Virus genome (UHGV): UHGV-1517735
Direction: 5' to 3' (one strand)
Origin: a virus
DNA length: 20,725 nucleotides
Shown here: piece after piece, positions 3,870 to 19,630 of the stretch
Layout: each line of letters starts with the position of its first letter
How positions within the stretch are numbered: the stretch's first letter is position 1
Notes under the pieces: model-generated
What the model was told of the DNA's origin: nothing
Databases searched by the model: none
The model's input: only the letters and a program-made list of their open reading frames with translations
Translations under genes and position numbers: made by a program

Positions 3870-4687
3870 ACGTACATATCCTGTTTACGTGCCCAGTCAG
3901 GGCGTTTAATAATTTCCACGCCGCCCCATTCATCGTTGATGCGGCATTCGTGATAGGTATTCAGATCCCGGCGGAACAGAGCGTGCCCGGCATCGACATC
4001 CGGCGCATCCAGCTCGAACACGCGTACCGGATACCGACCACAATCAATGCTTTCGCTCACGGCAAGAAAGAAAAAACCATGCGACTGACCAGTAACCCTC
4101 ATCGCTCCTTCGCGGTACATTGCGTCCTGCACGTGGTAGCGGAATTCCTCGATGTGGCGTGCAAAACGATCCATATCTGCAACCTTTTTCACGTCGACGA
4201 TCACGTTGTGCTCGTTCAGCCATTTGTCTGGACGAATGCGGCACAACTCACCAGTCTCTTCATCATTCCAGTACATTGATGCTTCGCAGTAACCAGGTGC
4301 TTCCAGCATCCAGCGTGCCGCCGGGTGAGCCATTGCGCTATCACGCATCAGCTCCAGTTTCCGCCACTGCTCGGCATCAAGTACCGTAATCCCCATATCC
4401 GCTACATCACGAAGAAATGCTTCTTCGTCAGCTTTACCTTGTTTCGTCCGACGATCGAACTTCGGTGAAACAATGAAGCGTTTGTCGAATTCTCCAGGCT
4501 CCAGAAGCAGACAGTGCAATGCGGTTCCCATATCCAGTGCAGACTTTTTCTCTTCGTCTTCTGGTGCTGCCTGAACCCATTTAAGAAGCGCCGGATTCTT
4601 GGCAACCATGTCCAGTTGCGACTTACTCACGCCGTCACCGGCGTGGTAGTCTTCGTTGCTGATGTCGAAATAAATTCCCGGTTTCAT
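3866..4687 (-). CDS. PD-(D/E)XK exonuclease, RecE / exodeoxyribonuclease VIII-like partner of RecT
   Basis: 273-aa ORF; RIRPDKW...IVDVKKV matches the PD-(D/E)XK D..(D/E)xK arrangement; N-terminus GIYFDISNEDYH typical of the family; directly upstream of recT. Confidence 0.75.
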   Translation of the reverse strand: MKPGIYFDISNEDYHAGDGVSKSQLDMVAKNPALLKWVQAAPEDEEKKSALDMGTALHCLLLEPGEFDKRFIVSPKFDRRTKQGKADEEAFLRDVADMGITVLDAEQWRKLELMRDSAMAHPAARWMLEAPGYCEASMYWNDEETGELCRIRPDKWLNEHNVIVDVKKVADMDRFARHIEEFRYHVQDAMYREGAMRVTGQSHGFFFLAVSESIDCGRYPVRVFELDAPDVDAGHALFRRDLNTYHECRINDEWGGVEIIKRPDWARKQDMYV

Positions 4688-4983
4688 GCCGCGTCCCTCT
4701 GCCCATCAAGCTGATCCGCCAGATCCCAGCGGGCGATAATTGCCATTGCCTCGCGCCGGTAGGAATCCATCAGTTCTTCGAACTCAGGGCTGTCTTTAGC
4801 AGCCTCCAGCACTTCCTGACGAACGCCTTTGCCTGTTACAACGTCGAAAGTTGAGGACAGTTGATGAAGTCGGATGCTCTCAATCAGTTCAACTTGTCGG
4901 TCATATAGCTGTTCTGACAGGCGGTAGTCCTTGTCGAATGCCAGCATGATTTTTTGAAGATTTTTCTGCTGATTAACGTTCAT
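4684..4983 (-). CDS. Hypothetical protein (99 aa) upstream of the exonuclease
   Basis: ORF with ATG at 4983 preceded by GGGAGGG; overlaps the exonuclease start (ATGA); no recognisable domain. Confidence 0.6.
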   Translation of the reverse strand: MNVNQQKNLQKIMLAFDKDYRLSEQLYDRQVELIESIRLHQLSSTFDVVTGKGVRQEVLEAAKDSPEFEELMDSYRREAMAIIARWDLADQLDGQRDAA

Positions 4984-6409: not shown

Positions 6410-6622
6410 TTGAAGATAGTAACCAGAATGGAGGCCGCAAAAGCCGGGTTAAATCGCTATTTCACAGGAAAGCGGTGCCGTCACGGCCATCTCTCTGAAA
6501 GGTATGTTCTGAACGGAACATGTGTTGAATGTGCAATGAATAGCGCCAACCGCCATCGTAATGAATTTGCTTGTGCACTAAAGAGTGCAAGAGGGGAAAC
6601 CTATGGCAAGCAGCTGGATTAA
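6410..6622 (+). CDS. Hypothetical Cys/His-rich small protein (cII position); start uncertain (TTG 6410 or ATG 6428)
   Basis: 70-aa ORF; CRHGH...CVEC...C pattern; AAGGGG upstream of the TTG; overlaps the replication gene start; no similarity to lambda CII noticed. Confidence 0.45.
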   Translation: MKIVTRMEAAKAGLNRYFTGKRCRHGHLSERYVLNGTCVECAMNSANRHRNEFACALKSARGETYGKQLD

Positions 6623-7427
6623 GGTTGAAGTTATCACTCCTGATAAACCTGAAATTTTTCAGATAGCAGAAATTCTGGGTATTGATCCAGATGCTGTTCT
6701 TGGAAAGCTGGTTCGTATATGGGCATGGGCTGACCAGCAAACAATAGACGGTAACGCTGGTAGCGTTACAAAAGGAGTACTTGATAGACTCGCTTTTATT
6801 ACAGGATTTGCTGACGCCCTCATTAGCGTCGGATGGCTTGCTTATCATGACGGCAAACTAATTCTTCCAAACTTTGAGCGACATAATGGAGAATCATCGA
6901 AAAAACGTGCACTTACGAATAGAAGAGTGGCAGAGCATCGAAAACGAGTAACGCAAAAAGTAACGCCAACAGCGTTACAAAAGGAGTTACCAGAGGAAGA
7001 GGAAGATATATATAAAACCCCACACATAGCGCACGTGCGCGAGGGTGCTCCGACCAGTGAAGCGAACAGTACGCCGTTGCAGGTGGCAGAACCTGAATTT
7101 CTGGATGGCCTGAGTGAACCCATCGGGAAATTTCCGATGACAGATGGCTGGCTACCGTCGCCAGATTTTCGGCGGCGTGCTGCGCTGTGGGGAACGGCCC
7201 TGCCGGAACCGGAATTTACACCTGCTGAACTTGCTGCATTCCGGGATTACTGGATGGCTGAGGGCAAAGTGTTCACGCAGGTTCAGTGGGAACAAAAATT
7301 CGCCAGGCACGTAAATCATATCAGGGGAAAATCAAAAAATGCCGGGAAAAGCGATGAGCTTGACTGGAATAACACTGACTGGATAGAAGGGGTGTGGGAT
7401 GAAATCAACTCCAGAACTTCTCAATGA
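6603..7427 (+). CDS. Replication initiation / replisome organiser protein with C-terminal DnaT-like domain
   Basis: ATG at 6603 with RBS GAGGGG; C-terminal GKFPMTDGWLPSPDFRRRAALWGTALPEPEFTPAELAAFRDYWMAEGKVFTQVQWEQKFARH closely parallels the E. coli DnaT C-terminus; iteron-like repeats inside the gene. Confidence 0.8.
   Translation: MASSWIKVEVITPDKPEIFQIAEILGIDPDAVLGKLVRIWAWADQQTIDGNAGSVTKGVLDRLAFITGFADALISVGWLAYHDGKLILPNFERHNGESSKKRALTNRRVAEHRKRVTQKVTPTALQKELPEEEEDIYKTPHIAHVREGAPTSEANSTPLQVAEPEFLDGLSEPIGKFPMTDGWLPSPDFRRRAALWGTALPEPEFTPAELAAFRDYWMAEGKVFTQVQWEQKFARHVNHIRGKSKNAGKSDELDWNNTDWIEGVWDEINSRTSQ
6748..7040. repeat. Putative replication origin: duplicated iteron-like element inside the initiator gene
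   Basis: GTAACGC-N5-GCGTTAC-AAAAGGAGT at 6751-6780 and 6960-6990; extra GTAACGC at 6948-6954; AT-rich GATATATATAAAA and 12-bp palindrome GCGCACGTGCGC (7029-7040) follow. Confidence 0.45.
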
Positions 7428-8175
7428 GTACGATCGCTTACGTGAGCATGGTGTTGCTGTGCATGAAGAGCGGCGTGACAGCAATGGCAAAAAGGAGCAG
7501 GTTGCTAGAATTTTCAATGAACTATTTGTCCAGTTACAGGCTGCATTTCCTGCAAGCGTTTCGACCATAAGGGAGCAGAACAAACTTAATGAATTCCGTA
7601 AGCAATGGATGCTTGCGTTTCTGGAGAATGGGATCACTACAATGGAACAGGTTAACGCTGGTATGCGCCACGCCCGCGCCAGTGAATCTCCGTTCTGGCC
7701 GTCGCCAGGGCAATTCATCAAGTGGTGCAAAGACAGCAAGATGGTTCTTGGCGTCACCATTGACGATGTGATGGCGGAGTTTCACCGGTACAGCAAGGAA
7801 AAAAGTTTATATCCTGGTGGTCCCGAAAGATTCCCGTGGCGGCATCCGGTTATGTACTGGGTCGTATGTGATACCCGTCGTGCAATGTATCAGCGCCAGC
7901 TTAGCGAGAGTGAGGTTGAGAAACACGCGCGCAGGCTGCTCGATGATTGGGCGAAAAAGGTGGCTTCCGGACAGCAGATACCCGATCCGGTGATCAGCAT
8001 ACAGGCAAAGCCAGAGCCCATGAGTACACCTCCGGACACAGGGAGAGACGTTTACCATCCACCAGGGCGAAGTTTCGGGTGCATGCCTAACGCCGCCACC
8101 CTTGGGGGAATAACACCGGCGCAGTGGCTGATGGAGGAATACAGGCGGGGAAAGGCGGCAGGATTTATCAAGTAA
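7399..8175 (+). CDS. Lambda P-like replication protein (helicase loader)
   Basis: 258-aa ORF; AFPASVSTIREQNKLNEFRKQWMLAFLENGITTMEQVNAGMRHARASESPFWPSPGQFIKWCK closely matches the conserved core of lambda P as recalled. Confidence 0.88.
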   Translation: MKSTPELLNEYDRLREHGVAVHEERRDSNGKKEQVARIFNELFVQLQAAFPASVSTIREQNKLNEFRKQWMLAFLENGITTMEQVNAGMRHARASESPFWPSPGQFIKWCKDSKMVLGVTIDDVMAEFHRYSKEKSLYPGGPERFPWRHPVMYWVVCDTRRAMYQRQLSESEVEKHARRLLDDWAKKVASGQQIPDPVISIQAKPEPMSTPPDTGRDVYHPPGRSFGCMPNAATLGGITPAQWLMEEYRRGKAAGFIK

Positions 8176-8180
8176 TACCA

Positions 8181-8200
8181 GCGCGATAGCGCATTTTTTT
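8181..8200 (+). terminator. Weak terminator-like hairpin with T7 tract after the P-like gene
   Basis: GCGC GATA GCGC followed by ATTTTTTT. Confidence 0.35.
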
Positions 8201-8212
8201 ACGCCTCGATAA

Positions 8213-8289
8213 TTACCTGTTAGGTAACAAAATATTATAAACTCTATTGATTTCATGTCTTATGTGGTTTTTAATTACCTCAGAGGTAA
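8213..8289 (+). promoter_or_regulatory. Operator-flanked promoter for the downstream operon
   Basis: TTACC-TGTTA-GGTAA (8213-8227) and TTACC-TCAGA-GGTAA (8275-8289); -35 TTGATT (8247-8252), 17-bp spacer, -10 TTTAAT (8270-8275); same layout as the PL-like promoter. Confidence 0.55.
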
Positions 8290-8292
8290 ATC

Positions 8293-8637
8293 ATGAGAAA
8301 ACAGATACAGGCTCTTGGTCGACTCAAAACAGGCCAGATGAACAAAACTGAATCTGCGTATTGCCAGCACCTTGAGCTGCGTAAACGTGCAGGGGAAATC
8401 GCCTGGTATCGATTCGAGGGTATCAAGCTGCGGTTAGCTGACAACACGTTCTATACGCCAGATTTCGCTGTGATGCTCGCCACCGGAGAGATGGAACTGC
8501 ACGAAGTGAAAGGTTTCTGGACCGACGACGCCAGGGTGAAAACCAAAGTCGCCGCAGATCAGTATCCGTTCCGAATCATCGGGGTAACGGTTAAACCAAA
8601 GAAAGCAGGTGGTGGCTGGAACATCGAAGAGTTCTGA
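8293..8637 (+). CDS. DUF1064-like phage protein (putative PD-(D/E)XK-fold nuclease/resolvase)
   Basis: 114-aa ORF; YTPDFAV...ELHEVKG...KTKVAADQYP pattern as recalled for DUF1064; RBS GAGGT. Confidence 0.7.
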   Translation: MRKQIQALGRLKTGQMNKTESAYCQHLELRKRAGEIAWYRFEGIKLRLADNTFYTPDFAVMLATGEMELHEVKGFWTDDARVKTKVAADQYPFRIIGVTVKPKKAGGGWNIEEF

Positions 8638-8698
8638 ATCGACGATCTTTTTAGTTATCAATGTAATCAATAAGTTATGTGGATAAGCGAGGGTAAAG

Positions 8699-9262
8699 AT
8701 GGAAAGTAATATCAAAGGGTTAGTTGCCGCCGGGCATGAGATGGCTTCGGAACTGAAAGCAGAATGTGGTGCCGTTGATATGCGCAGTGTGGCAAAGCTG
8801 ATCAGCGATTTGGCAACGCAACTGGAAGTGCAACTGGTGCGTGCTAATGCGCTGGCCGAAGACCACCAGAGAGCGACTGAGTCAATTAAGCAGGCTGATT
8901 CGGCTGTTAAGTTGGCGCACGAGAAGTTTTCGGTGCTGGCGGCGGAGAATGCGGGGCTGAAGTCTGGCGCAATGGACGAAATCAAGGTTATCAACCGTGG
9001 AGGGCAGGCATATTGCGTAAAAGATGGAGTGCAAGTTAATCCCATGTATGCAAGAGGGTGGAATGACTATCGCGCAAAGTCTCTGCAATCAGACACCCCG
9101 GCCACCGACGCATTCCTTGCTGAAATTGAACGCAAAGCAATCCGCAAGTTCATTAACAGCATTGAACACATCCTGCGTGACAAGTTGTCACCGTATGACA
9201 CCGAAGAGATGCTTGAAGCTATGCGTATTTTTCTGGAAGAACAGGGAGGTGAGCAAAAATGA
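8699..9262 (+). CDS. Hypothetical protein (187 aa), first gene of accessory operon
   Basis: RBS GCGAGGG before ATG 8699; coiled-coil-like N-terminal half; no recognisable domain. Confidence 0.7.
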   Translation: MESNIKGLVAAGHEMASELKAECGAVDMRSVAKLISDLATQLEVQLVRANALAEDHQRATESIKQADSAVKLAHEKFSVLAAENAGLKSGAMDEIKVINRGGQAYCVKDGVQVNPMYARGWNDYRAKSLQSDTPATDAFLAEIERKAIRKFINSIEHILRDKLSPYDTEEMLEAMRIFLEEQGGEQK

Positions 9263-9564
9263 CGATCACAAAACAACGGGTAGAAGAAATCATATCCCGC
9301 ATTGAAATGTATGGGCATGGCGCAGGGTATACCGCCGAAGAGGTTTATGACCTGGCTGTACTGGCGCTGAATTTATCAAATATCGCAAACCTGAAGCGAT
9401 ACGAGCTTGATATGGGTGGTTGTGACTCGTGCGGTCAGGATTGTGGCGCTGACATGACTGAAGATTCTGATGGCGATTATGTCCTGTTTGATGACGTAGT
9501 TAAGTTGTTTGAGTTTGATACATTCGAAAGCCCAGCAAAGGAGGCAACCAGTGAGCGAAATTAA
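9259..9564 (+). CDS. Hypothetical acidic protein (101 aa) with CDSCGQDC motif
   Basis: ATG overlaps upstream stop (ATGA); no recognisable domain. Confidence 0.6.
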   Translation: MTITKQRVEEIISRIEMYGHGAGYTAEEVYDLAVLALNLSNIANLKRYELDMGGCDSCGQDCGADMTEDSDGDYVLFDDVVKLFEFDTFESPAKEATSERN

Positions 9565-10249
9565 TTACCAGGCACTGCGTGAGGCGGCGGAACGTGCAAT
9601 TCCGGCAATGGAACGCCTGTTAATGTTGCTAGTTGATGATGCTCTGATAAGTGAACAGGAACTTAAAGATTACGGTGTGGATATTGATGCGCTCAACGCC
9701 TTCAAATTTCTGGCCGGACCAGAAACCGTGCTGGCGCTTCTGGATGAACGGGAAAGAAACCAGCAATACATCAAACGCCGCGACCAGGAGAACGAGGAGA
9801 TTGCGCTAACGGTAGGGAAACTGCGTGTTGAGCTTGAAGCAGCAAAATCAAAACTCAACGAGCAGCGTGAATATTACGAGGGAGTAATCGCGGATGGAAG
9901 TAAGCGTATTGCTGAACTGGAGAAAAGCGAAGAGCAACTCATCAATGAGCGTGACCATGCTGAGTCTGCTTTAGATGATATGTACTTTGCAGCAACCGGT
10001 AACAGGCCGGAGTGGAGCAACTGGTTCGGCTTTTCAGATGCTGTCGATGCCGTGGTTGACAGAATTGCTGATTTAGAAGCTAAACAGTCATCGCCAGTAG
10101 TGCCGGAAGGACTGGTTAAAGCAGTGCGCTTCTATGAGCAGGTTAAGCGTGAAAATCCGCCAGTCGAAACCGGAGCATGGAAAGACGCTGTTGACTGGGT
10201 GCTCAAAGAGGCCTGCCAGGTTGTAAACATTGGTACCAAAGGAGATTGA
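9551..10249 (+). CDS. Hypothetical coiled-coil protein (232 aa)
   Basis: GTG at 9551 preceded by AAGGAGG; long heptad-like central region; C-terminal PVVPE module shared with the next gene. Confidence 0.6.
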   Translation: MSEINYQALREAAERAIPAMERLLMLLVDDALISEQELKDYGVDIDALNAFKFLAGPETVLALLDERERNQQYIKRRDQENEEIALTVGKLRVELEAAKSKLNEQREYYEGVIADGSKRIAELEKSEEQLINERDHAESALDDMYFAATGNRPEWSNWFGFSDAVDAVVDRIADLEAKQSSPVVPEGLVKAVRFYEQVKRENPPVETGAWKDAVDWVLKEACQVVNIGTKGD

Positions 10250-10250
10250 T

Positions 10251-10631
10251 ATGAGCACTTTTACCGACAAAGAACTGATTAAAGAAATCAAAGAGCGCAT
10301 AGGCAGTCTGGACGTGCGAGACGATATTGAGCGCCGTGCTTATGAAATTGCTCTGGCATCACTGGAAGCAGAGCCGGTGGCGTGGCTTCATTCAGACAAT
10401 GGCTTAGGTATTCCGGCAATAACGAGGAGTAAAAACATTGCTGACAGTTGGTTATCAAAGGGTTGGTATGTTCAGCCGCTATATATAGCCAAGCCAGTGC
10501 CAGTAGTACCGGAAGAAAAACCAATGCCGAACCCTCTTAGCATGTACGCGGTTGATGCTGTTGCCGCTATTGCAGAGGTGAGAGGCTGGAACGCCTGCCG
10601 TGCCGTCATGCTTCAGGGAGATAAATCATGA
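10251..10631 (+). CDS. Hypothetical protein (126 aa), shares C-terminal PVVPE module with upstream gene
   Basis: ATG 10251 preceded by AAGGAG; AKPVPVVPEE parallels AKQSSPVVPEG in the upstream protein. Confidence 0.65.
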   Translation: MSTFTDKELIKEIKERIGSLDVRDDIERRAYEIALASLEAEPVAWLHSDNGLGIPAITRSKNIADSWLSKGWYVQPLYIAKPVPVVPEEKPMPNPLSMYAVDAVAAIAEVRGWNACRAVMLQGDKS

Positions 10632-11245
10632 TTAATCGTACCAAGCTGGAGCACATCCTCGAATATGCCAGACAGCAGAGGCGCTTTGGTCAGCATTGCA
10701 AAATTCCGCCAGGAGATATGGTTGAAATCGTGGAAATGGCCATGCGTAAGGCTGGCAACCCTCATGTAACCCCGGCTCGCCTGCCTGGTGGTTTCACCAT
10801 TGAGGATGCGAAGGCGTTACATGAAGACCTGGTACGCAGCCACATAAGCCAGGCTTTAAGTGGCGAAAATATGAAAAAGAACGATCGCGATGCTGATTTG
10901 CGCTGGATTCATGGCGTAATAGTTCAGGCAGCGTGGTTTGTAAAAGCATCACTGGAGCAAAATGCGCTATCGGGCAACTCTCCGGTAACTCCGGATGGTT
11001 GGGTTATAGTGCCGAAGAAACTAACCGCTGAGAACGGCGCTAAGGGTGTGCTATCCGGTGAATTTTCAGAAACTACGTTTATAAGCTGCCCGGAATGCTT
11101 TGGCGATGATGATTGCGATACCTGTGACGGGAGCGGACGAATTGAAATTAAAGTACCAGTCACGTGGACGACCATAAAATCCATCTGGGATAAAGGTATT
11201 GCGCATTTTGCAGCAAAACCGCCGCAGGAGGTTAACCGTGGCTAA
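10628..11245 (+). CDS. Hypothetical protein with DnaJ-type zinc-finger motif (205 aa)
   Basis: CPECFGDDDCDTCDGSG fits the CxxCxG...CxxCxGxG pattern of DnaJ cysteine-rich domains; start overlaps upstream stop. Confidence 0.7.
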   Translation: MINRTKLEHILEYARQQRRFGQHCKIPPGDMVEIVEMAMRKAGNPHVTPARLPGGFTIEDAKALHEDLVRSHISQALSGENMKKNDRDADLRWIHGVIVQAAWFVKASLEQNALSGNSPVTPDGWVIVPKKLTAENGAKGVLSGEFSETTFISCPECFGDDDCDTCDGSGRIEIKVPVTWTTIKSIWDKGIAHFAAKPPQEVNRG

Positions 11246-11519
11246 CCTGCAACTTGCCGTCAAAGGTGAATACTTCGATGCCATGATTCGCGGGGAGAAA
11301 ACGGAAGAGTATCGCCTGTGTAATGACTACTGGAAAAAGCGCCTCGTTAACCGTAAGCATGACCGCCTGATTATCACAAAGGGATATCCGAAGCGCGACG
11401 ATTCCAGCCGCAGAATAGACGTCCCGTATGAAGGGTATGAAATCAAGACAATCACACATCCGCACTTCGGCGATAAACCGGTAAAGGTGTTCGCGATAAA
11501 GGTAAATATTGATGGCTAA
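11238..11519 (+). CDS. ASCH-domain-like protein (93 aa)
   Basis: GTG at 11238 preceded by AGGAGG; LQLAVKGEYFDAMIRGEKTEEYR resembles the ASCH N-terminal strand-turn motif. Confidence 0.6.
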   Translation: MANLQLAVKGEYFDAMIRGEKTEEYRLCNDYWKKRLVNRKHDRLIITKGYPKRDDSSRRIDVPYEGYEIKTITHPHFGDKPVKVFAIKVNIDG

Positions 11520-11850
11520 ATCAGCAGCAGAGCGCAAAGCCGCTCAGAGAGCCAGACAAGCTGCATCTGGTGTGCGTAAACTGGAGATTGTGCTTGATGC
11601 TCAGGAAATTGAAATGCTGGAGCGTAACTGTGCCACGCGTCGCCCCGGGCGTGCGCCTTACGAATTTGGTGAGTATATAGCGTTACTGATCCGCCAGGAT
11701 GATGCACGCGTGCGCGGGCGTATAAAATCGATCAGCAGAAAACGTTGCGGTAAGTGCGGAGAGAGAGTTCCAGTTAATTCATGCCCGTGTAATGGTGACT
11801 CGCAATGCTGGGTGACTAAAGGCTGGCATGAAACGAAATTAATAGTGTGA
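11512..11850 (+). CDS. Cys-rich zinc-finger protein (112 aa), candidate late-gene regulator
   Basis: Basic N-terminal segment; C-terminal CGKCG...CPCNGDSQC; last gene before the terminator and operators upstream of terminase. Confidence 0.6.
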   Translation: MAKSAAERKAAQRARQAASGVRKLEIVLDAQEIEMLERNCATRRPGRAPYEFGEYIALLIRQDDARVRGRIKSISRKRCGKCGERVPVNSCPCNGDSQCWVTKGWHETKLIV

Positions 11851-11967: not shown

Positions 11968-12564
11968 ATGATGCCTGCTGAACCTAAAACCTATAAACGC
12001 AAATCAACGCAATTTAAGCCACTAACAGCAATGCAGGAGGCTTATTGCCAGTCATACATCAAAACGCCTGAAAACCAGACTCAGGCAGCGATTAATGCAG
12101 GATTCTCCCCAAATACAGCGGCAGTTAAAGCCAGTGTCATGATGCGCGATGAACGCATTCAAAAACGGATTGCCGAGTTGATGGAGGAGCGCAACAAACG
12201 AATGCGCGTCAGTGCTGATTACGTTCTCATGCGCCTGGTGGAGATCGACCAGATGGACGTGATCGACATCCTCAACGACGATGGGAGCCTTAAGCCAATC
12301 CGCGAGTGGCCGAAAATCTGGCGCACTACGCTTAGTGGCTTTGATCTGTCATCGACCATCATGAACATGAACGAGGATTCGATAGAGACAATCCTCAAAA
12401 AAATTAAATGGCCTGACAAGGTGAAGAACCTCGAACTGATTGGTAAGCACGTCGACGTCAACGCATTCAAAGAACGCCTGGATGTTAATGTGAATGTGAC
12501 AATTGCTGATCGCATAGCAGCAGCCAGGAAGCGACTCAAAGAACGTCAGGATGGCAATCAGTGA
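11968..12564 (+). CDS. Terminase small subunit (start uncertain; upstream in-frame ATGs rejected because they span the terminator)
   Basis: HTH-like segment TQAAINAGFSPNTAAVKASVMMRDERIQKRI typical of small terminase subunits; directly upstream of and overlapping the large subunit. Confidence 0.7.
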   Translation: MMPAEPKTYKRKSTQFKPLTAMQEAYCQSYIKTPENQTQAAINAGFSPNTAAVKASVMMRDERIQKRIAELMEERNKRMRVSADYVLMRLVEIDQMDVIDILNDDGSLKPIREWPKIWRTTLSGFDLSSTIMNMNEDSIETILKKIKWPDKVKNLELIGKHVDVNAFKERLDVNVNVTIADRIAAARKRLKERQDGNQ

Positions 12565-14036
12565 CAGATGCAGCGTTATCTCCTGAAGAGCAGTTGATCG
12601 AGGATATTGCAGGGTTCACTCACGATCCGCTTGGCTATGCCCTCTATGCGTTCCCGTGGGGGGAAGAGGGGACTGAACTGGCACATGCTACCGGCCCACG
12701 TCAGTGGCAGGCCGATGCGTTCCGAGAGATACGTGATCACCTGCAGAATCCAGAGACGCGCTATCAGCCGCTTATGCTGGCACGCGCTTCTGGTCACGGT
12801 ATTGGTAAATCCGCATTCATCTCAATGCTGATCAACTGGGGCATGTCCACTTGCGAGGATTGTAAGGTCGTGGTGACCGCCAACACCGACAACCAGCTAC
12901 GAACGAAGACCTGGCCGGAAATTATCAAGTGGTCGAACCTTGCTATCACGAAAGACTGGTTTACCTGTACTGCTACCGCGATGTACAGCAATGACCCAGG
13001 GCACGACAAGCGGTGGCGGGCTGACGCAATACCCTGGTCTGAGCACAACACTGAGGCATTCGCCGGACTACACAACGAGCGCAAACGCATCATCGTGGTA
13101 TTCGATGAAGCGTCGAACATTGCGGATTTGGTGTGGGAAGTTGCCGAGGGTGCGCTAACGGACGAAGACACTGAGATTATCTGGGTGGCATTCGGAAACC
13201 CGACGCGTAATACCGGACGTTTCCGCGAATGTTTCCGCAAATATAAACACCGCTGGAAAACTGCGCAGATTGACAGCCGGACGGTGGAAGGCACTAACAA
13301 ACAGCAGTTGCAGAAATGGGTTGATGACTACGGGGAAGACAGCGACTTCGTTAAAATCCGTGTGCGCGGCATATTCCCGGATGCATCTGAATTGCAGTTT
13401 ATCCCTACCGGACTTACTGACGAGGCAATGAAACGGGTGGTCACCGCTGCGCAGGTTGCACATGCTCCGGTGATAATCGGCGTTGACCCGGCATACTCAG
13501 GCGTTGATGACGCGGTGATATACCTGCGGCAGGGGCTGCACAGTAAGGTGCTATGGACTGGTAACAAGACCACCGACGATCTGATTATGGCGAAGCGTAT
13601 CGCTGACTTTGAAGACCAGTACCAGGCTGACGCGGTGTTCATCGACTTCGGTTACGGTACCGGTCTGAAGTCAATCGGTGACGGTTGGGGGCGTACATGG
13701 CAACTTGTTCCGTTCGGTGGCGCGTCTACTGATCCGCAGATGCTTAACAAGCGTGGGGAGATGTTCAACTCATGCAAGACATGGCTGAGGCTGGGCGGCA
13801 TGCTGGATGACCAGGAAACAGCGGACGACCTGTCGGCGGCAGAGTACAAAGTTCGCGTGGACGGTAAAATCGTTATCGAACCGAAGGAAGATATCAAGGA
13901 GCGGCTTGGGCGTTCGCCGGGTAAAGGCGATGCGCTACTGCTGACGTTTGCGTTCCCTGTGTCTAAGCGTCTGCGAATTCCCGGGCAGCAGAACCAGCAA
14001 GGCAAGGCCATCACAGATTACGATCCCTATGCTTAA
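12561..14036 (+). CDS. Terminase large subunit
   Basis: 491-aa ORF, GTG start overlapping upstream stop; Walker A ARASGHGIGKSAF, Walker B-like IIVVFDEASNI, C-terminal nuclease-like IGVDPAYSG..D region. Confidence 0.92.
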   Translation: MTDAALSPEEQLIEDIAGFTHDPLGYALYAFPWGEEGTELAHATGPRQWQADAFREIRDHLQNPETRYQPLMLARASGHGIGKSAFISMLINWGMSTCEDCKVVVTANTDNQLRTKTWPEIIKWSNLAITKDWFTCTATAMYSNDPGHDKRWRADAIPWSEHNTEAFAGLHNERKRIIVVFDEASNIADLVWEVAEGALTDEDTEIIWVAFGNPTRNTGRFRECFRKYKHRWKTAQIDSRTVEGTNKQQLQKWVDDYGEDSDFVKIRVRGIFPDASELQFIPTGLTDEAMKRVVTAAQVAHAPVIIGVDPAYSGVDDAVIYLRQGLHSKVLWTGNKTTDDLIMAKRIADFEDQYQADAVFIDFGYGTGLKSIGDGWGRTWQLVPFGGASTDPQMLNKRGEMFNSCKTWLRLGGMLDDQETADDLSAAEYKVRVDGKIVIEPKEDIKERLGRSPGKGDALLLTFAFPVSKRLRIPGQQNQQGKAITDYDPYA

Positions 14037-14077
14037 TCCGCTTGAGGGGATAATGTCGTTGATATCCTCTGATGAGG

Positions 14078-14106
14078 ATAAAACAAAGCCAGCTCATCGG
14101 CTGGCT
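14078..14106 (-). terminator. Rho-independent terminator downstream of the minus-strand cargo ORF
   Basis: AGCCAGC / GCTGGCT stem with 6-nt loop, followed on the minus strand by TTTGTTTTAT. Confidence 0.5.
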
Positions 14107-14109
14107 GTT

Positions 14110-14123
14110 TGTGACATGTCACA
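14110..14123. repeat. 14-bp palindrome TGTGACATGTCACA (copy 2 of GTGACATGTCAC)
   Basis: Identical 12-bp core to 11847-11858; lies between the cargo ORF stop and its terminator. Confidence 0.5.
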
Positions 14124-14126
14124 GCG

Positions 14127-14546
14127 TTACTTAATGGCATCAAATCCAGCGTTGATGGCTTCCGCAATATTGATGGCACTTGTTTTATCGAATTGCCTAT
14201 TCTGAATAAGCGCCGCATGCAGGCATTGTAACTTCATGTTGTATAAGTGTTCGCTCATGTAATCATTATCACTTTTTGTTTTAGCGCAAACAGAGCGAGA
14301 AATATCAAACACATCGCCTTTTTCCATTTCAGAACGTTGTGCTGTTATCCAGTCATGGAACGTAACGCTAGTACCATGGTCTTCGCTAAGAGTTAACCCG
14401 GCCAGTCCCTCACTCTGAATTACTTCGTAATGCATTTCATTACCAGCAAAAACGCCATAAAAAATGCAGTCTTCAGCCTGAACGATACGAGAATATTTTA
14501 ATGGCCATTCATTTAGATACTTAGCCAACATATCAATTGTCTTCAT
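14127..14546 (-). CDS. Hypothetical cargo/moron protein (139 aa), opposite strand to flanking late genes
   Basis: ORF with RBS AAGGTGA; AT-rich codon usage unlike neighbours; own terminator; no domain recognised, no predicted TM segment. Confidence 0.7.
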   Translation of the reverse strand: MKTIDMLAKYLNEWPLKYSRIVQAEDCIFYGVFAGNEMHYEVIQSEGLAGLTLSEDHGTSVTFHDWITAQRSEMEKGDVFDISRSVCAKTKSDNDYMSEHLYNMKLQCLHAALIQNRQFDKTSAINIAEAINAGFDAIK

Positions 14547-14552
14547 GATCTC

Positions 14553-14580
14553 ACCTTAAAAAAATGCCCGGCGAACCGGG
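14553..14580 (-). terminator. Terminator-like hairpin immediately upstream of the cargo ORF RBS
   Basis: GCCCGG / CCGGGC stem with TTCG-type loop followed on the minus strand by ATTTTTTT, then AAGGTGAGATC-ATG. Confidence 0.55.
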
Positions 14581-14657
14581 CGAACTGGAAGCAATGAGTT
14601 ATGCCTTCCGTGGTTGTACTGGTTTACAGCATGAAGTCATCGCAATGGCGTCCTGCT

Positions 14658-14701
14658 GTAAAAAGGGCGGTGATAGTTCTTCAAGGGAAACCATCACCGC
14701 C
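14658..14701 (-). terminator. Possible terminator hairpin downstream of the tRNA
   Basis: 9-bp stem GGCGGTGAT / ATCACCGCC with 18-nt loop, followed on the minus strand by CTTTTTA. Confidence 0.35.
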
Positions 14702-14744
14702 AAGCCCCTGGAACTTCTGGCATCACGGTCCTTAGGCGTGATTC

Positions 14745-14821
14745 TGGCGTGGCATGCAGGATTCGAACCTGCGACCAACCGCTTAGAAGGCGGTTGCTCT
14801 GTCCAACTGAGCTAATGCCAC
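14745..14821 (-). tRNA. tRNA-Arg, anticodon UCU (argU-like, phage-borne)
   Basis: 77-nt cloverleaf read on the minus strand: acceptor GTGGCAT/ATGCCAC, D-stem GCTC/GAGC, anticodon stem ACCGC/GCGGT with loop CUUCUAA, T-stem GCAGG/CCTGC with TTCGAAT loop, encoded CCA. Confidence 0.92.
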
Positions 14822-15143
14822 AACGCTGAGAGCACTTAGCCTGTTAAGGCGCCACACTTTGTCGCGGCTCCATAAATGCTCTCATCGTTGTACCCTCGTC
14901 TCTTCCGAGGCGTCACACCGAATCGCCGGGATGGTGAATCCCCGTGCGCGGAATAAAACCGCTCGACTTGCACATTCCGGCTACCTGGTTCGTTTGCCCG
15001 AGCAAGGGAGGGTGCCCCTTAAACGTATCCAGACCGCTATCGGCGCATGTGCCAGACGCCGTACTGCTCAAAATAAAAGCTCACTCCACCTGTTCAATTT
15101 AACGACAAGCCAGTCAGGTTAGTAACCGGAATGAACTCTTTGG

Positions 15144-15158
15144 TTACCTGAAAGGTAA
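15144..15158. promoter_or_regulatory. Operator-like palindrome TTACC-TGAAA-GGTAA upstream of the head module
   Basis: Perfect match to the recurring palindrome; intergenic. Confidence 0.5.
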
Positions 15159-15248
15159 TAATTTGTGCGTTAAATGTCAACTACCTACGATAAATAAATC
15201 ATATGTGGTTAAATTGGTAATAATTTAATTGCGTACGGAGTCATTGAT

Positions 15249-15455
15249 ATGTGCATGGGTAGCTCACCATCAGTGCCTGCAACACCAGAAGTTCAGGCAG
15301 CACCACAGGAGCAGGATGCCGCCGTTGTTGATGCCCGCGACGAAGAAACTCGTCGCCGTCGCGCTGCTGCTGGTCGTAGTTCTACGCTGCTTACCGGTTC
15401 TCAGGGCGACACATCAACCGCTAATACCAGCGGTAAAACGCTGCTTGGTCAGTAA
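15249..15455 (+). CDS. Small Ala/Gln/Arg-rich protein (68 aa), possibly a virion internal protein
   Basis: RBS CGGAG; begins MCMGSSPS; located directly upstream of the portal gene; loose resemblance from memory to small podovirus internal proteins. Confidence 0.5.
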   Translation: MCMGSSPSVPATPEVQAAPQEQDAAVVDARDEETRRRRAAAGRSSTLLTGSQGDTSTANTSGKTLLGQ

Positions 15456-15469
15456 CCGGAGTCATTGAA

Positions 15470-17149
15470 ATGGCGGAAACAACTAAAGAGCGATTGAACA
15501 AACAGTTCGCACAACTTGAAAGCGAGCGTCAGTCGTTCGAGCCGCACTGGCGCGAGTTGAGTGATTACATCAACCCGCGTGGTTCCCGCTTTCTGACTTC
15601 TGAGGTCAACCGTAACGATCGACGCAATACACGCATTATTGATTCGACCGGGACTATGGCGGCGCGCACTCTCGCCAGCGGCATGATGTCAGGCATCACA
15701 AGCCCCGCGCGTCCGTGGTTTCGCCTGGCTACGCCAGATCCTGAAATGATGGATTATGGCCCTGTTAAGTTGTGGCTTGAGGCGGTGCAGAACCGCATGA
15801 ACGATATGTTCAATAAGTCGAATCTCTATCAGTCGCTGCCGCAGTTATACGGAAGCCTCGGCACATACAGCACTGGCGCAATGGCGGTGCTGGAGGATGA
15901 CGAGGACATCATTCGTACAATGCCATTCCCGATAGGAAGTTACTACCTGGCTAACTCACCTCGTGGCAGTGTGGACACCTGTTTTCGCAAGTTCTCTATG
16001 ACTGTTCGTCAGCTTGTTCAGGAGTTTGGACTAAATAACGTCAGCGAATCCGTAAAAAGCATGTGGGAAAGCGGCACCTACGAGAGGTGGATTGAAGTGA
16101 TGCATTCGGTTTACCCGAACATTGACCGCGATACATCGAAGCTGGATAGCAAGAACAAGCCATTCAAATCGGTTTATTACGAGGTTGGTGGCGATAACGA
16201 CAAGTTGTTGCGTGAGTCCGGATTCGATGAGTTTCCAATTATGGCTCCGCGCTGGGAAGTTAACGGCGAAGATGTTTATGGATCATCATGCCCGGGTATG
16301 CTGGCGCTTGGACCTGTTAAGGCATTGCAGCTTCTCCAGAAGCGCAAGTCGCAGTTGATTGATAAAGCCACCAATCCGCCGATGGTTGCTCCGACTTCCC
16401 TCAAGAATCAGCGCGCCTCCCTTCTTCCTGGCGACATCACGTATATCGATCAGATTACTGGTCAGGATGGTTTCAGGCCTGCTTATCTGGTTAACCCCAG
16501 TACAGCAGATCTGGTAGCAGACATTCAGGACACTCGTCAAATCATTAACAGCGCCTACTTTGTCGATCTGTTCATGATGTTGCAGAACATCAATACCCGC
16601 TCGATGCCTGTTGAAGCGGTGATTGAAATGAAAGAAGAAAAACTTCTGATGTTGGGTCCGGTTCTGGAGCGTCTGAACGACGAATGTCTTAATCCTCTCA
16701 TTGACCGCGCTTTCTCGATGATGGTGCGTAAAAACATGCTGCCGCCACCGCCTGACGCGATGGAAGGTATGCCCCTGAAGGTCGAATACATTTCCGTCAT
16801 GGCTCAGGCGCAGAAGTCTATCGGCCTGTCCAGTCTGGCATCCACGGTCAACTTCATTGGTCAACTTGCGCAAGCGAAACCAGAAGCTCTCGACAAACTC
16901 AACGTTGATCAGGCGATTGATGCATTTGCTGATATGTCCGGTGTGTCTCCAACCGTCATTGTTCCGCAGGAACAGGTTGAGCAGGCTCGCCAGCAACGGG
17001 CACAGCAGCAACAGCAGCAACAAATGATGGCGATGGGGATGGCAGCGGCACAGGGTGCCAAGACGCTAAGCGAAGCTAAAACTTCGGATCCGAGTGTTTT
17101 GTCAGCTATGGCGAATGCAGTTAGTGGTCAGGGGGGGCAATCACAATGA
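15470..17149 (+). CDS. Portal / head-to-tail connector protein
   Basis: 559-aa ORF in the terminase-portal-scaffold-capsid order; Gln/Ala/Met-rich C-terminal tail (QQRAQQQQQQQMMAMGMAAAQG) reminiscent of podovirus connector proteins. Confidence 0.8.
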   Translation: MAETTKERLNKQFAQLESERQSFEPHWRELSDYINPRGSRFLTSEVNRNDRRNTRIIDSTGTMAARTLASGMMSGITSPARPWFRLATPDPEMMDYGPVKLWLEAVQNRMNDMFNKSNLYQSLPQLYGSLGTYSTGAMAVLEDDEDIIRTMPFPIGSYYLANSPRGSVDTCFRKFSMTVRQLVQEFGLNNVSESVKSMWESGTYERWIEVMHSVYPNIDRDTSKLDSKNKPFKSVYYEVGGDNDKLLRESGFDEFPIMAPRWEVNGEDVYGSSCPGMLALGPVKALQLLQKRKSQLIDKATNPPMVAPTSLKNQRASLLPGDITYIDQITGQDGFRPAYLVNPSTADLVADIQDTRQIINSAYFVDLFMMLQNINTRSMPVEAVIEMKEEKLLMLGPVLERLNDECLNPLIDRAFSMMVRKNMLPPPPDAMEGMPLKVEYISVMAQAQKSIGLSSLASTVNFIGQLAQAKPEALDKLNVDQAIDAFADMSGVSPTVIVPQEQVEQARQQRAQQQQQQQMMAMGMAAAQGAKTLSEAKTSDPSVLSAMANAVSGQGGQSQ

Positions 17150-17442
17150 CAGATTACGAAGATGATCAACTGAAAGAAGAAAGCGCCCGTAAGCAACGTG
17201 ACATGGCACAGCGTGAAATTGATGACATTCGCTTTGTCATGAGCAGTGAACAGGGGCGTCGCGTTGTCTGGTCGGTGCTGGAGAAAGGCCGTGTGTTTTC
17301 CGCTATCTCACCGATGGACGCTATGGCAATGGCATTTAATGAGGGGCAACGCAATCTGGCGCTGGAACTGTTTCAGCGCGTTATGGCGCATTGCCCTGAA
17401 CAGTATTTGAAGATGGCCAAAGAGGCCAGTGAACAGGAGTGA
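17146..17442 (+). CDS. Hypothetical head-module protein (98 aa)
   Basis: ATG overlaps portal stop (ATGA); between portal and scaffold. Confidence 0.6.
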   Translation: MTDYEDDQLKEESARKQRDMAQREIDDIRFVMSSEQGRRVVWSVLEKGRVFSAISPMDAMAMAFNEGQRNLALELFQRVMAHCPEQYLKMAKEASEQE

Positions 17443-17444
17443 TC

Positions 17445-18140
17445 ATGAGTTTATTTGAGCGTTTGCTGTATCGCCGTCTTTGCAATGAGCAACCAGTCGA
17501 TGGTGGAGCAGCTCCGGCTGCGTCAGAACCGTCAGCGCCTGCAGGTGATAACCCTGCTCCAGTTGGTGATCCATCACAACAGGAAGGTGATAAGCCACAA
17601 CCTGTTGCTGATGGCGATAAACCTGCTGATGACAAAAAGCCTGAAAACGATAAGCAGGATGAAAAAAAGGACGGCGATAAACCAGAGGGTGCGCCTGAGA
17701 AGTACGAGTTTCAGGCTGCCGAAGGCGTAGAGCTGGATACAGAAGCGTTGAAGGAATTCGAGCCGGTGGCGCGAGAACTTAACCTGACCAACGAGCAAGC
17801 GCAAAAGCTGGTTGATGCTTATCCGAAGATTCTGGCAGGTGTTCAGCAGCGCCAGGCAGAAGCCTGGCAGAAAACGACCGAGCAGTGGGCTGCTGATGTA
17901 AAAGCCGACAAAGAAATCGGTGGCGACAAGTTGATTTCTAACCTTAGCGCCGCACAGCGTGCGCTTGACCAGTTCGGGACACCTGAACTCAAAGAATATC
18001 TGAACACCACCGGGCTGGGTAATCACCCTGACCTGGTCAAAACGTTCGTGAAAATCGGAAAGGCGATGTCTGAAGATGGCATGGTCACCGGTGGTAATGA
18101 AGGCCAGCGTAGTGCGGCCGAAGTGCTCTATGGCAAATAA
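17445..18140 (+). CDS. Putative scaffolding protein
   Basis: RBS AGGAG 5 nt before ATG 17445; disordered Pro/Ala/Asp/Lys-rich N-terminal half and helical C-terminal half; directly upstream of the capsid gene. Confidence 0.6.
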   Translation: MSLFERLLYRRLCNEQPVDGGAAPAASEPSAPAGDNPAPVGDPSQQEGDKPQPVADGDKPADDKKPENDKQDEKKDGDKPEGAPEKYEFQAAEGVELDTEALKEFEPVARELNLTNEQAQKLVDAYPKILAGVQQRQAEAWQKTTEQWAADVKADKEIGGDKLISNLSAAQRALDQFGTPELKEYLNTTGLGNHPDLVKTFVKIGKAMSEDGMVTGGNEGQRSAAEVLYGK

Positions 18141-18154
18141 GAGAGGAAATAACA

Positions 18155-19141
18155 ATGGCTGTTAAAGGCTTAACTGCGCTAACGCTGGCTGACTGGGGTA
18201 AGCGCGTCGATCCAAACGGGAAAGTCGATAAGATTATCGAGCTTCTCGGTCAAACTAACCCGATCCTTCAGGATATGCCTTTTGTCGAAGGGAACCTTCC
18301 TACCGGACACCGAACCACCATTCGTTCTGGTTTACCTTCTGCTACCTGGCGTTTGTTGAACTATGGCGTACAACCAAGCAAATCAACCACAGTGCAGGTC
18401 ACCGATCCCGTTGGCATGTTGGAAACCTATGCTGAAGTCGATAAGTCACTGGCTGATCTGAACGGCAATACCGCCGAATTCCGCCTGTCTGAAGACCGAG
18501 CATTTATTGAAGCGATGAATCAGCAGATGGCGCAGACGCTGTTTTATGGTGATTCCAGCGTTAACCCTCAGCAGTTTATGGGACTGTCCTCCCGCTATTC
18601 CAGCCTGTCTGCGGGTAATGCTCAGAACATCATTGATGCTGGTGGCACGGGTACAGATAACACCTCAATCTGGTTAGTAGTGTGGGGCGAAAACACCGTG
18701 CATGGCATCTTCCCGAAAGGGCAGAAGGCTGGCATTCAGATGGAAGATAAAGGCCAGGTGACACTGGAAGATGCTAATGGCGGCAAGTACGAAGGCTATC
18801 GCACCCATTACAAATGGGACAACGGACTTGCTCTGCGTGACTGGCGTTATGTTGTTCGCATTGCAAACATCGATGTCAGCAATCTTTCAGAACCTTCCTC
18901 TGCCGCAAATATTGCGAAGTTGATGGTTAAAGCACTGCATCGCATTCCAAACCGTGGCATGGGCCGCCCGGTGTTCTACATGAACCGCACTGTAGGCCAG
19001 GCTCTTGATCTGCAGTCTCTGGAGAAAACATCTCTGGCTATCAGCGTAAAAGAGACTGAAGGCGAGTGGTGGACTTCATTCCGTGGTGTACCAATCCGTG
19101 AAACTGATGCGCTTCTGGAAACAGAAGCCCGCGTGGTGTAA
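18155..19141 (+). CDS. Major capsid protein
   Basis: 328-aa ORF with RBS GAGAGGA; follows the scaffold gene; followed by an intercistronic hairpin; call based on position and size, no specific motif recognised. Confidence 0.7.
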   Translation: MAVKGLTALTLADWGKRVDPNGKVDKIIELLGQTNPILQDMPFVEGNLPTGHRTTIRSGLPSATWRLLNYGVQPSKSTTVQVTDPVGMLETYAEVDKSLADLNGNTAEFRLSEDRAFIEAMNQQMAQTLFYGDSSVNPQQFMGLSSRYSSLSAGNAQNIIDAGGTGTDNTSIWLVVWGENTVHGIFPKGQKAGIQMEDKGQVTLEDANGGKYEGYRTHYKWDNGLALRDWRYVVRIANIDVSNLSEPSSAANIAKLMVKALHRIPNRGMGRPVFYMNRTVGQALDLQSLEKTSLAISVKETEGEWWTSFRGVPIRETDALLETEARVV

Positions 19142-19157
19142 CGCCTGTTATTAACCT

Positions 19158-19177
19158 GTGGGTCGTAACAGACCCAC
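19158..19177 (+). promoter_or_regulatory. Intercistronic stem-loop after the capsid gene (no U-tract)
   Basis: GTGGGTC / GACCCAC stem with 6-nt loop between the capsid stop and the next RBS. Confidence 0.4.
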
Positions 19178-19192
19178 TAATGGAGAAAGAAG

Positions 19193-19630
19193 ATGATCAC
19201 CGACAAACTGTTGATGTTCTCCGAAGCACAGGCGGTAACTGATACCGCGGCTTCTACTGACGTAATCGATCTCGGCCCAATTGATGGAAACCGTCGCGAT
19301 ATCGGCGTGGGTTACCCGCTTGAGTTTTGGGCGCTGGTTAACGAAGCCGCCACGGCAAGTGGTGAGGCAACTGTAAACATCCAGTTGCAGACGAGTGAGA
19401 ATAACAGCTCTTGGACCACTATTTATGATAGTGGCGCACTGGCAAAGGCCACCCTGACAGCAGGTAAACGAGTTGTTTCTGCAAAGGTGCCTGCCGGTGT
19501 TCAGCGATATTTGCGTGTTAACTACTCCGTCGCAACTGGCCCACTAACGGCCGGCAAATTCACTGCGGGTATCAGTCTGGATGTTGATGCCAATACACCG
19601 TACCCGATCCGCTCAAAAATAACTGGTTAA
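19193..19630 (+). CDS. Hypothetical head protein (145 aa), possible capsid decoration/accessory protein
   Basis: RBS GGAGAAAG; Thr/Ser/Gly/Ala/Val-rich composition suggestive of a beta-rich surface protein; immediately after the capsid gene. Confidence 0.6.
   Translation: MITDKLLMFSEAQAVTDTAASTDVIDLGPIDGNRRDIGVGYPLEFWALVNEAATASGEATVNIQLQTSENNSSWTTIYDSGALAKATLTAGKRVVSAKVPAGVQRYLRVNYSVATGPLTAGKFTAGISLDVDANTPYPIRSKITG

Follow-up and report, generated by a model that had tools for sequence, protein, structure and literature searches.

The locus and its composition

What, if anything, is encoded in the stretch at 14822-15143 that precedes the only tRNA gene of an ε15-like phage genome? The window, that is, the whole 20,725-nt stretch of viral DNA analysed here, is ~99% identical to the podophages TL-2011b, phiV10 and ZX5 (genus Uetakevirus). 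Its sole tRNA, tRNA-Arg(UCU), lies inside a small minus-strand cassette flanked by plus-strand genes for the terminase (12561-14036) and the portal protein (15470-17149), and because the tRNA is encoded on the minus strand, 14822-15143 is upstream of it on that strand only. A preliminary description had seen here unusually GC-rich DNA with several imperfect hairpins and no convincing ORF, which might hold either the promoter and leader of the tRNA or a structured non-coding RNA. The stretch is as described, although it is only moderately GC-rich overall (54.0%; the window averages 49.7%, 322-nt windows have an sd of 3.8%, and 12.8% of these are as GC-rich or richer) and clearly above the adjoining intergenic DNA at 15144-15248 (29.5%). 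The 179-nt core of the element described below has a GC content of 60.3%. The hairpins go beyond chance, with the minus strand of 14822-15143 folding better than shuffled controls (z = -2.3) and one hairpin (hairpin A) reaching z = -5.95 with a minimum free energy of -35.8 kcal/mol.

The tRNA shares 92.9% identity over a 56-nt stretch with an annotated E. coli tRNA-Arg gene, which bears only indirectly on the earlier proposal of an argU-like body with a distinct acceptor stem. The proposal that it supplies AGA decoding for the late genes finds no support in the window, because AGA codons are absent from the genes for the terminase, portal and head (12561-19630), and all 20 in the window belong to other genes, most of them at 6585-11850. 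Rather, the tRNA looks like one of several cargos that replace one another in this leader RNA. The covariance-model search suggested earlier recovers this tRNA and assigns 14822-15143 to no known family: the tRNA is the only match of Rfam 15 in the whole window at the gathering threshold, and a search of 14500-15300 at E values up to 10 gave nothing relevant in 14822-15143. Weak matches to RyhB, sau-6072 and anti-hemB were discarded, as they consist of the hairpin of terminator T2 alone. The features of the unit are listed in Table 1.

Table 1. Features of the minus-strand unit around 14822-15143 (window coordinates).
Feature	Position	Strand	Description and basis
Putative early promoter	15152-15181	minus	TTGACA (15181-15176), 18-nt spacer, TACCTT (15157-15152); read from sequence
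Operator-like palindrome	15144-15158		TTACCTTTCAGGTAA; overlaps the -10 hexamer and the predicted transcription start; sequence
Accessory hairpin A0	15077-15138	minus	GAGUUCAUUCC...GGAGUGAGCUU; fold z = -3.17
RNA-family core	15064→14886	minus	Covariance model R1, 141.5 bits, E = 1.5e-42
H1 of core	15061-15057 with 15045-15041	minus	Loop UCUGGCACAUG
H2 base of core	15033-15030 with 14987-14984	minus	
Invariant sequence of core	14985-14967	minus	GGUAGCCGGAAUGUGCAAG
P4 of core	14942-14939 with 14931-14928	minus	Loop UUCACCA
Pseudoknot PK2 of core	14936-14933 with 14919-14916	minus	CACC with GGUG
P5 of core	14910-14906 with 14898-14894	minus	Loop GAAGAGA
Accessory hairpin A	14820-14891	minus	15-bp stem ACAACGAUGAGAGCA / UGCUCUCAGCGUUGU, variable apex
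tRNA-Arg (anticodon UCU)	14745-14821	minus	Encoded CCA; ARAGORN; Rfam tRNA, 73.3 bits
Small hairpin	14722-14742	minus	AUCACG-N9-CGUGAU, directly after the cargo; fold
Intrinsic terminator T1	14666-14701	minus	14-bp stem, then CUUUUU; terminator scan, fold
Intrinsic terminator T2	14566-14581	minus	GCCCGGUUCGCCGGGC, then AUUUUUUU; terminator scan
p03	14127-14546	minus	139 aa, phrog_4846, function unknown; ORF list, PHROGs, phiV10 annotation

A conserved RNA family with a pseudoknotted core

Homologues of the stretch were found in many phages (see below), and 163 unique cores of 152-182 nt were extracted. An alignment of 39 diverse homologues (A2) served to build the covariance model R1, which matches the window once only, over model positions 1-162 and with H1, H2, P4, PK2 and P5 all intact; the window core is also recovered by nhmmer (E = 3e-34). 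In A2, the 5' part of the core consists of H1 (CGGCR/YGYCG) with the loop UAUGGCACAUG, followed by AGCGGUC, which stands directly after H1 in the window core as well, and by H2, a helix of variable length with the closing pairs CYGG/CCRG. The nearly invariant GGUAGCCGGAAUGUGCAAG and a variable H3 region come next, and the 3' part is made up, in order, of P4 (with the 7-nt loop YUCACCA), GGCGAUAC, GGUG, UGAC and P5 (CCUCG-GAAGAGA-CGAGG). The GGUG segment pairs with CACC of the P4 loop, forming the H-type pseudoknot PK2.

The family has five helices supported by covariation, the pseudoknot among them. Among the 39 homologues, 98.2% of cells are paired on the proposed structure and compensatory changes occur at 12 of 28 pairs (81 cells); the observed pairing and covariation are reached by none of 500 shuffles, and slid controls pair at 25-50%. 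The P4 stem, for example, occurs as GCGA/UCGU, GGGA/UCCC, ACGU/GCGU, ACGC/GCGU, UUGA/UCAA and other variants, while PK2 is CACC/GGUG in 121 unique cores, AACC/GGUU in 24 and mixed in none, a perfect covariation across 145 cores. The minus strand can be assigned as the RNA strand, because G·U pairs (39/39 at the H2 base and 17-19/39 in H1 and P4) would be A·C mismatches on the opposite strand. The stretch is thus a member of a conserved, covarying family of structured RNAs, which is strongly supported and bears out the structured non-coding RNA considered at the outset. The preliminary description had named the lack of a secondary structure conserved across homologues, together with the lack of any transcript other than the tRNA precursor, as refuting its idea; such a structure is present in the 39 examined.

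About 60 nt of the core are nearly invariant and mostly unpaired in phages that have nothing else in common, the pattern expected of an RNA that contacts a conserved host machine. A second pseudoknot, PK1, is possible between GCACAU of the H1 loop and AUGUGC, two segments that are fully conserved and never vary. A further pairing, GUAGCC with GGCGAU, was dropped, since natural GUAACC variants are uncompensated.

The same comparisons bear on the idea that the stretch is a non-functional spacer carrying only the tRNA promoter, or that it encodes a small protein. An 87-aa plus-strand ORF with a TTG start does exist at 14859-15122, and some records annotate hypothetical proteins over homologous DNA; these differ in strand and frame, the frame of the 87-aa ORF is not conserved, and no reading frame on either strand is open across the homologues. 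The two variable hairpins change in length in all three classes modulo 3. A protein-coding reading was rejected on these grounds, and with ~80% identity across unrelated phage types and abundant compensatory base changes, either form of the idea can hardly be correct.

Distribution of the element

By blastn against phage genomes, ~245 bp (14818-15062) are ~82% identical to unannotated DNA of unrelated siphoviruses, comprising cdtI, mEp460, 2H10, Ayreon and a dozen Stx2c-converting phages, and ~165 bp are ~80% identical to P1, P7, D6, SJ46 and RCS47. Shorter matches occur in Klebsiella, Enterobacter and Salmonella phages and in phages deposited as Stenotrophomonas phages. The copies thereby span ε15/phiV10-like podophages, N-less lambdoid and Stx2c phages, and P1-like phage-plasmids; the element is also present in a virulent Klebsiella phage, and in Klebsiella phage SopranoGao it is positioned after the lysis genes. 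Exact-pattern scans yielded more than 200 further copies, from IMG/VR and from 22 Enterobacteriaceae and Erwiniaceae genomes (one per species). Two additional scan matches, in contigs of Oscillospiraceae and Bacillota, resemble sample contamination or are not accompanied by the rest of the element. With the core alone as blastn query, matches were found in 1840 of 5426 complete E. coli genomes (34%), with a maximum of four copies in one genome and with 554 of the places on plasmids, and in 591 PLSDB plasmids, mostly P1-like; the core match is unannotated in every E. coli and PLSDB record listed.

In the annotated contexts, the neighbouring genes are always on the strand equivalent to the minus strand of the window. 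The lambdoid copies lie behind cI, and each of these phages has a single one, confined to the PL side: in mEp460, a single match was obtained over 20.5 kb spanning both early operons, and a second, diverged copy sought there in the PR operon was not found. One IMG/VR prophage (L030) contains two cores ~700 bp apart, at 3997-4154 and ~4822-4950, the second visibly degenerate. In P1 (L005 2900-3260), the core lies 12-15 nt past tRNA-Ile(CAU) and ~90 nt ahead of the start codon of ban, internal to the ban operon, in a stretch that is unannotated in the P1 record. In ε15 itself (L006 2487-2632), what is left is hairpin A0 with the initial ~50 nt of the core, and the tRNA is absent.

A literature search in a full-text library, covering put-like RNAs, N-independent lambdoids, the P1 ban leader, mEp phages and processive antitermination, returned no description of the element, and the exact 19-mer was absent. 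A preprint on the Pas sRNA, considered as a possible earlier description, concerns an unrelated RNA. We rate the element as a new structural class within a known kind, the regulatory RNA of phage early leaders, with a putative function.

Promoters, operators and hairpin A0

The putative promoter of the unit lies at or beyond the edge of 14822-15143, partly outside it, and falls below the threshold of a consensus promoter scan. Many ε15-like loci have TTGACA-N17/18-TACCTT and a TTACC...GGTAA palindrome upstream of the element; near-identical palindromes precede it in L127, L150, L153, L157, L235 and others, and in the ε15 record the position equivalent to the palindrome of the window carries an annotated repressor-binding site. 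Judged from the promoter sequence, transcription would start near 15145, so that 14822-15143 would be almost exactly the 5' leader of the tRNA precursor, extending from this predicted start to the predicted RNase P cleavage site at 14822. The preliminary description was thus right about the leader position; the likely promoter is at or beyond the edge, and the RNA is not a tRNA-specific leader, because 133 of 192 contexts have no detectable tRNA.

Upstream sequences across the family form 94 clusters, with varied promoter and operator types that end 4-55 nt before the core. The promoters in front of the element are usually right behind the terminator of a repressor gene and represent at least 10 operator/promoter (immunity) types, and the genes upstream of the element are mostly divergent. 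In cdtI, for example, the cI stop codon is followed by an intrinsic terminator, the promoter TTGACA-16-CATAAT, ~45 nt and then the core, and the promoter is overlapped by a 17-bp operator also found at OR. The annotators of Ayreon independently marked a promoter and a terminator at the equivalent spots. P1 is the exception to this promoter-proximal position.

Hairpin A0, between the putative promoter and the core, has a conserved apical motif (CUUGUCGUUAAAU), and other loci have homologous hairpins before or after the core. The ε15 record labels this hairpin as an RNase III processing site on the plus strand, that is, on the opposite strand.

Hairpin A, cargo, terminators and the first gene

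Downstream of the core, the stem of hairpin A is conserved and covarying (GAUGAGAGCA/UGCUCUCAGC versus AGGUAAGAGCA/UGCUCUUUCC), its apex differs among loci, and its last two pairs use nucleotides 1-2 of the tRNA. The apex was considered as the specificity loop of an antisense regulator, and this was rejected, as it has no significant complement in the window (the best antisense match is 11 nt, with ~0.35 such matches expected by chance by our own estimate). Its 3' strand resembles boxA (UGCUCUUU in 28 contexts); the corresponding sequence of the window, UGCUCUCAG (UGCUCUC), is base-paired within the hairpin and off the consensus GCUCUUUA. Three related contexts (L092, L162/L036 and L049) have a canonical boxA (GCUCUUUAA) at a distance of 28-34 nt from the 3' end of the core. 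In these, the rrn-type boxA (UGCUCUUUAACAA in L092, 3330-3385) stands after a hairpin that doubles as the terminator of a convergent membrane-protein gene.

The slot behind hairpin A is occupied by tRNA-Arg(UCU) in 44 of 192 contexts and elsewhere by a tRNA-like fold or an unrelated structure. ARAGORN reports a tRNA in 59 of 193 context records, namely the 44 with tRNA-Arg downstream and 15 from P1-like phages with tRNA-Ile(CAU) upstream, and detects none in 133 of 192 contexts. A hidden tRNA array as the general cargo was dismissed, since most loci lack an ARAGORN tRNA and some cargos are merely tRNA-like. In 77 of 192 contexts the cargo is framed by GUUGUGG...CCACAAC stems. The cargo framed in this way varies among L019, L047, L080, L191 and L001: that of L191 is a tRNA-like fold with D and T arms, that of L080 has a T-arm only, and that of L019 includes an arm with the loop CUUUUAA, resembling the anticodon loop of tRNA-Lys(UUU). 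None of these five is called a tRNA by ARAGORN, and they could be decoys for anticodon nucleases. The AUCACG...CGUGAU hairpin recurs downstream of the element in 80 of 192 contexts.

Two intrinsic terminators, T1 and T2, separate the cargo from p03, the first protein gene of the unit. The U-tract of T2 runs directly into the ribosome-binding site AAGGUGAGAUC and the AUG (14546) of p03, leaving too small a gap for a promoter of its own. In close relatives (L097, L106, L054 and others), the p03 slot holds swapped genes, including members of the Sf6 gp66/N4 gp49 family and, in some, Tad2-like proteins (anti-Thoeris, that is, directed against the Thoeris defence), which suggests an early accessory or anti-defence slot expressed by read-through. 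Across the family, 98 of 128 contexts have their first downstream ORF on the strand of the element. Of 111 distinct first-gene contexts, 87 have one or more hairpin-plus-U-run terminators on the way from the core to the first same-strand ORF, often ending ~18 nt ahead of the start codon of genes from many families, and no terminator was found before the first ORF in the remaining 24. Terminators occur on the sense strand in 59% of contexts versus 40% on the antisense strand, a modest excess among contexts that are phylogenetically related. The cdtI leader contains ~600 nt of strongly structured RNA (z = -5.1), including a hairpin-plus-U-run before the first ORF, and the Ayreon record marks a terminator within the early-left operon. 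P1 has no terminator separating the core from ban, and in P1, L073 and similar contexts the core is directly followed by a ribosome-binding site and an ORF.

Relation to known leader and phage RNAs

The closest analogy is to putL and putR of phage HK022, which suppress distant terminators through the zinc-binding domain of the RNA polymerase beta-prime subunit. The element shares with them a cis-encoded structured RNA situated just after a repressor-controlled early promoter of an N-less lambdoid phage, with terminators downstream; the order cI terminator, operator-bearing promoter and, within ~45 nt, the element, as found in cdtI, mEp460, Ayreon and the Stx2c phages, corresponds to the put niche. 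Stem I of putL and the H1 stem of the element are alike (CGGCG/CGUCG, with CAUG before and AGCG after). By eye, HK022 (L158) 28230-28310 and window 15041-15064 have ACGGCG...CAUGCGUCG..AGCG in common. This resemblance could be due to chance, convergence or a trace of common ancestry, and homology is unsupported by profile searches: nhmmer gave no match to the element in HK022, and the covariance model, run with filters off, gave none at putL (~28230-28310) or putR (~29450-29530). The HK022 put RNAs are ~70 nt long with two stem-loops, whereas the core of the element is 152-182 nt long and comprises five helices and one or more pseudoknots. In HK022, the PL and the PR operon each contain a put site, whereas the element is single and on the PL side, and unlike put it also occurs in P1-like and ε15-like phages and in a virulent Klebsiella phage. 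Membership of the put family, for which only the first hairpin is alike by eye, was therefore rejected on account of the different size and architecture, the absence of profile similarity and the single copy.

Among non-phage leaders, the eps-associated RNA (EAR) of Bacillus is, like the element, a pseudoknotted leader RNA of ~120-160 nt ahead of intra-operon terminators. The two differ in phylum, sequence and fold, and EAR is chromosomal where the element is phage-borne; the EAR model is presumably unmatched, because no Rfam model matches the element. The nut sites of lambda and the boxB-boxA-boxC leaders of rrn operons share with the element the position at the start of an early operon (nut) and, in three contexts, a canonical boxA after the core; the boxA-like sequence of hairpin A is base-paired in the window. 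The carriers have no annotated N gene and no boxB/N pair, and the core has no counterpart in nut or rrn leaders.

The C4 RNA of P1 and P7, the CI RNA of P4 and the CA RNA of N15 are likewise small phage RNAs derived from an early or immunity leader with the involvement of RNase P, and P1 carries both a C4-type element and the RNA-family core. They are ~70-90 nt antisense RNAs with phage-specific loops, whereas the core is invariant between heteroimmune phages, and the Rfam C4 family does not match the element. GOLLD and ROOL are complex phage ncRNAs of unknown function that, like the element, are often located beside tRNA genes. They are considerably larger (~580-800 nt), come chiefly from Firmicutes and other phyla and lack a regular place next to a promoter, and their Rfam models are unmatched here.

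Possible function as a terminator-resistance leader

The reading that we favour, tentatively and at less than even confidence, is that 14822-15143 is a cis-acting leader RNA that makes RNA polymerase terminator-resistant or counteracts pausing. A little more tentatively, the core may be a new structural class of RNA-polymerase-modifying, processive antitermination RNA, a protein-free equivalent of lambda N. The stretch would form the minus-strand 5' leader of a small repressor-controlled early transcription unit comprising, in order, the promoter/operator, A0, the 179-nt core, hairpin A, tRNA-Arg, the small hairpin, T1, T2 and p03. The nascent core would fold co-transcriptionally into a compact pseudoknotted domain and stay on the elongating RNA polymerase, directly or via Nus factors, and a polymerase bearing this domain would resist pausing and termination. 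Transcription from the early promoter could then pass T1 and T2 in the window, and in N-less lambdoids the same RNA would carry transcription past the terminators within the early-left operons. The leader may later be freed when RNase P cuts at the 5' end of the tRNA. If so, the function would be like that of HK022 put or Bacillus EAR, and the sequence and fold of a different class.

This antitermination reading is favoured because, in phages in which N is unannotated, early transcripts begin with a conserved RNA and have terminators behind it, which is the niche of putL. A suggestion by Casjens and colleagues that a put-like RNA, none having been identified, may serve the N-less relatives of mEp460 and 2H10 also speaks for it, and how N-less lambdoid phages antiterminate has been raised as a question (PMC12315714). 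No N is annotated in the carrier lambdoid phages, and Pfam and PHROGs searches of the first downstream ORFs returned no antiterminator domain or N-like protein. We also count in its favour that the RNA is real and strand-specific, that its invariant nucleotides are unpaired, that it is promoter-proximal in at least 10 operator/promoter types, and that terminators precede the first genes, N is unannotated and boxA or boxA-like sequences occur. Counted against it are the lack of an nhmmer or covariance link to putL or putR, the single PL-side copy, the internal position of the core in P1 with no terminator before ban, the 24 of 111 contexts without a terminator, and the modest sense-strand excess of terminators in related contexts. 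In addition, most of the core is gone from ε15 although the gene downstream of it is still there, and the layout of promoter, element and terminator fits a stand-alone ncRNA gene equally well.

In a rather unlikely alternative, the core, with or without the accessory hairpins, is excised as a stable trans-acting ncRNA (the cut being made, say, at a terminator or by RNase P where the tRNA begins) and acts as a sponge or decoy for a host protein or a defence component. It would then belong to an early counter-defence package, the other parts of which are the cargo, tRNA or tRNA-like, and the variable gene behind it. With a promoter just in front and a terminator 75-400 nt behind, the element has the typical layout of an ncRNA gene, and in L092, L036 and L049 the core is immediately followed by the terminator of a convergent gene. 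The cargos (tRNA-Arg(UCU), tRNA-like folds and the look-alike of the tRNA-Lys(UUU) anticodon arm) and the Tad2-like next gene of some relatives would suit such a package; strongly invariant unpaired nucleotides suit protein binding, and one copy per genome is enough for action in trans. This alternative leaves unexplained the terminators immediately before start codons, no partner is known, and the apex of hairpin A has no significant antisense target in the window. Moreover, the only promoter between cI and the early-left genes of the lambdoids is upstream of the element, and because it is the sole promoter, these genes must be transcribed through the element.

An improbable role is that of a scaffold for processing, folding or stabilisation, which would protect the 5' end or guide an RNase in releasing the cargo. 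It would account for the element adjoining the tRNA in the window, where hairpin A ends on tRNA nucleotides 1-2, for its location after tRNA-Ile in P1, for the GUUGUGG...CCACAAC stems around the cargo in 77 of 192 contexts and for the neighbouring hairpin that the ε15 annotators read as an RNase III site, but not for the 133 of 192 contexts with no detectable tRNA, nor for P1, L073 and similar loci with a ribosome-binding site and an ORF directly after the core. A 160-nt pseudoknotted domain with ~60 invariant nt would also seem to exceed the usual needs of 5' protection or RNase recognition. It is less probable still that the core is the aptamer of a riboswitch-like sensor that sets the expression of the early operon via the downstream hairpins and terminators. 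The 5' leader position, the compact pseudoknotted fold with invariant joining regions, and the variable sequence 3' of the conserved domain are reminiscent of an aptamer with its expression platform, and the ACAAC/GUUGU repeats could pair alternatively; however, no known aptamer class is matched, the terminators are 220-320 nt from the core, too distant for a simple switch between mutually exclusive hairpins, and the downstream genes have no common function hinting at a ligand.

Whatever its function, the element is a 160-nt pseudoknotted RNA missing from Rfam and from genome annotation, which heads a slot carrying a tRNA in the window, and tRNA-like RNAs and a Tad2-like gene in some relatives. 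Should the antitermination reading be correct, control of polymerase processivity by RNA alone would be a common strategy of temperate enterobacterial phages, beyond HK022 alone, with Shiga-toxin phages and P1-like phage-plasmids among its users. It would also answer the question of how N-less lambdoid phages antiterminate (PMC12315714), and explain the passage of terminators in N-less lambdoid and Stx2c phages, in ε15-like phages and in the ban operon of P1. As a separate observation, the ~100-nt minus-strand segment bounded by T1 and T2 (14566-14665) folds strongly (z = -3.56), and could be a separate small RNA.
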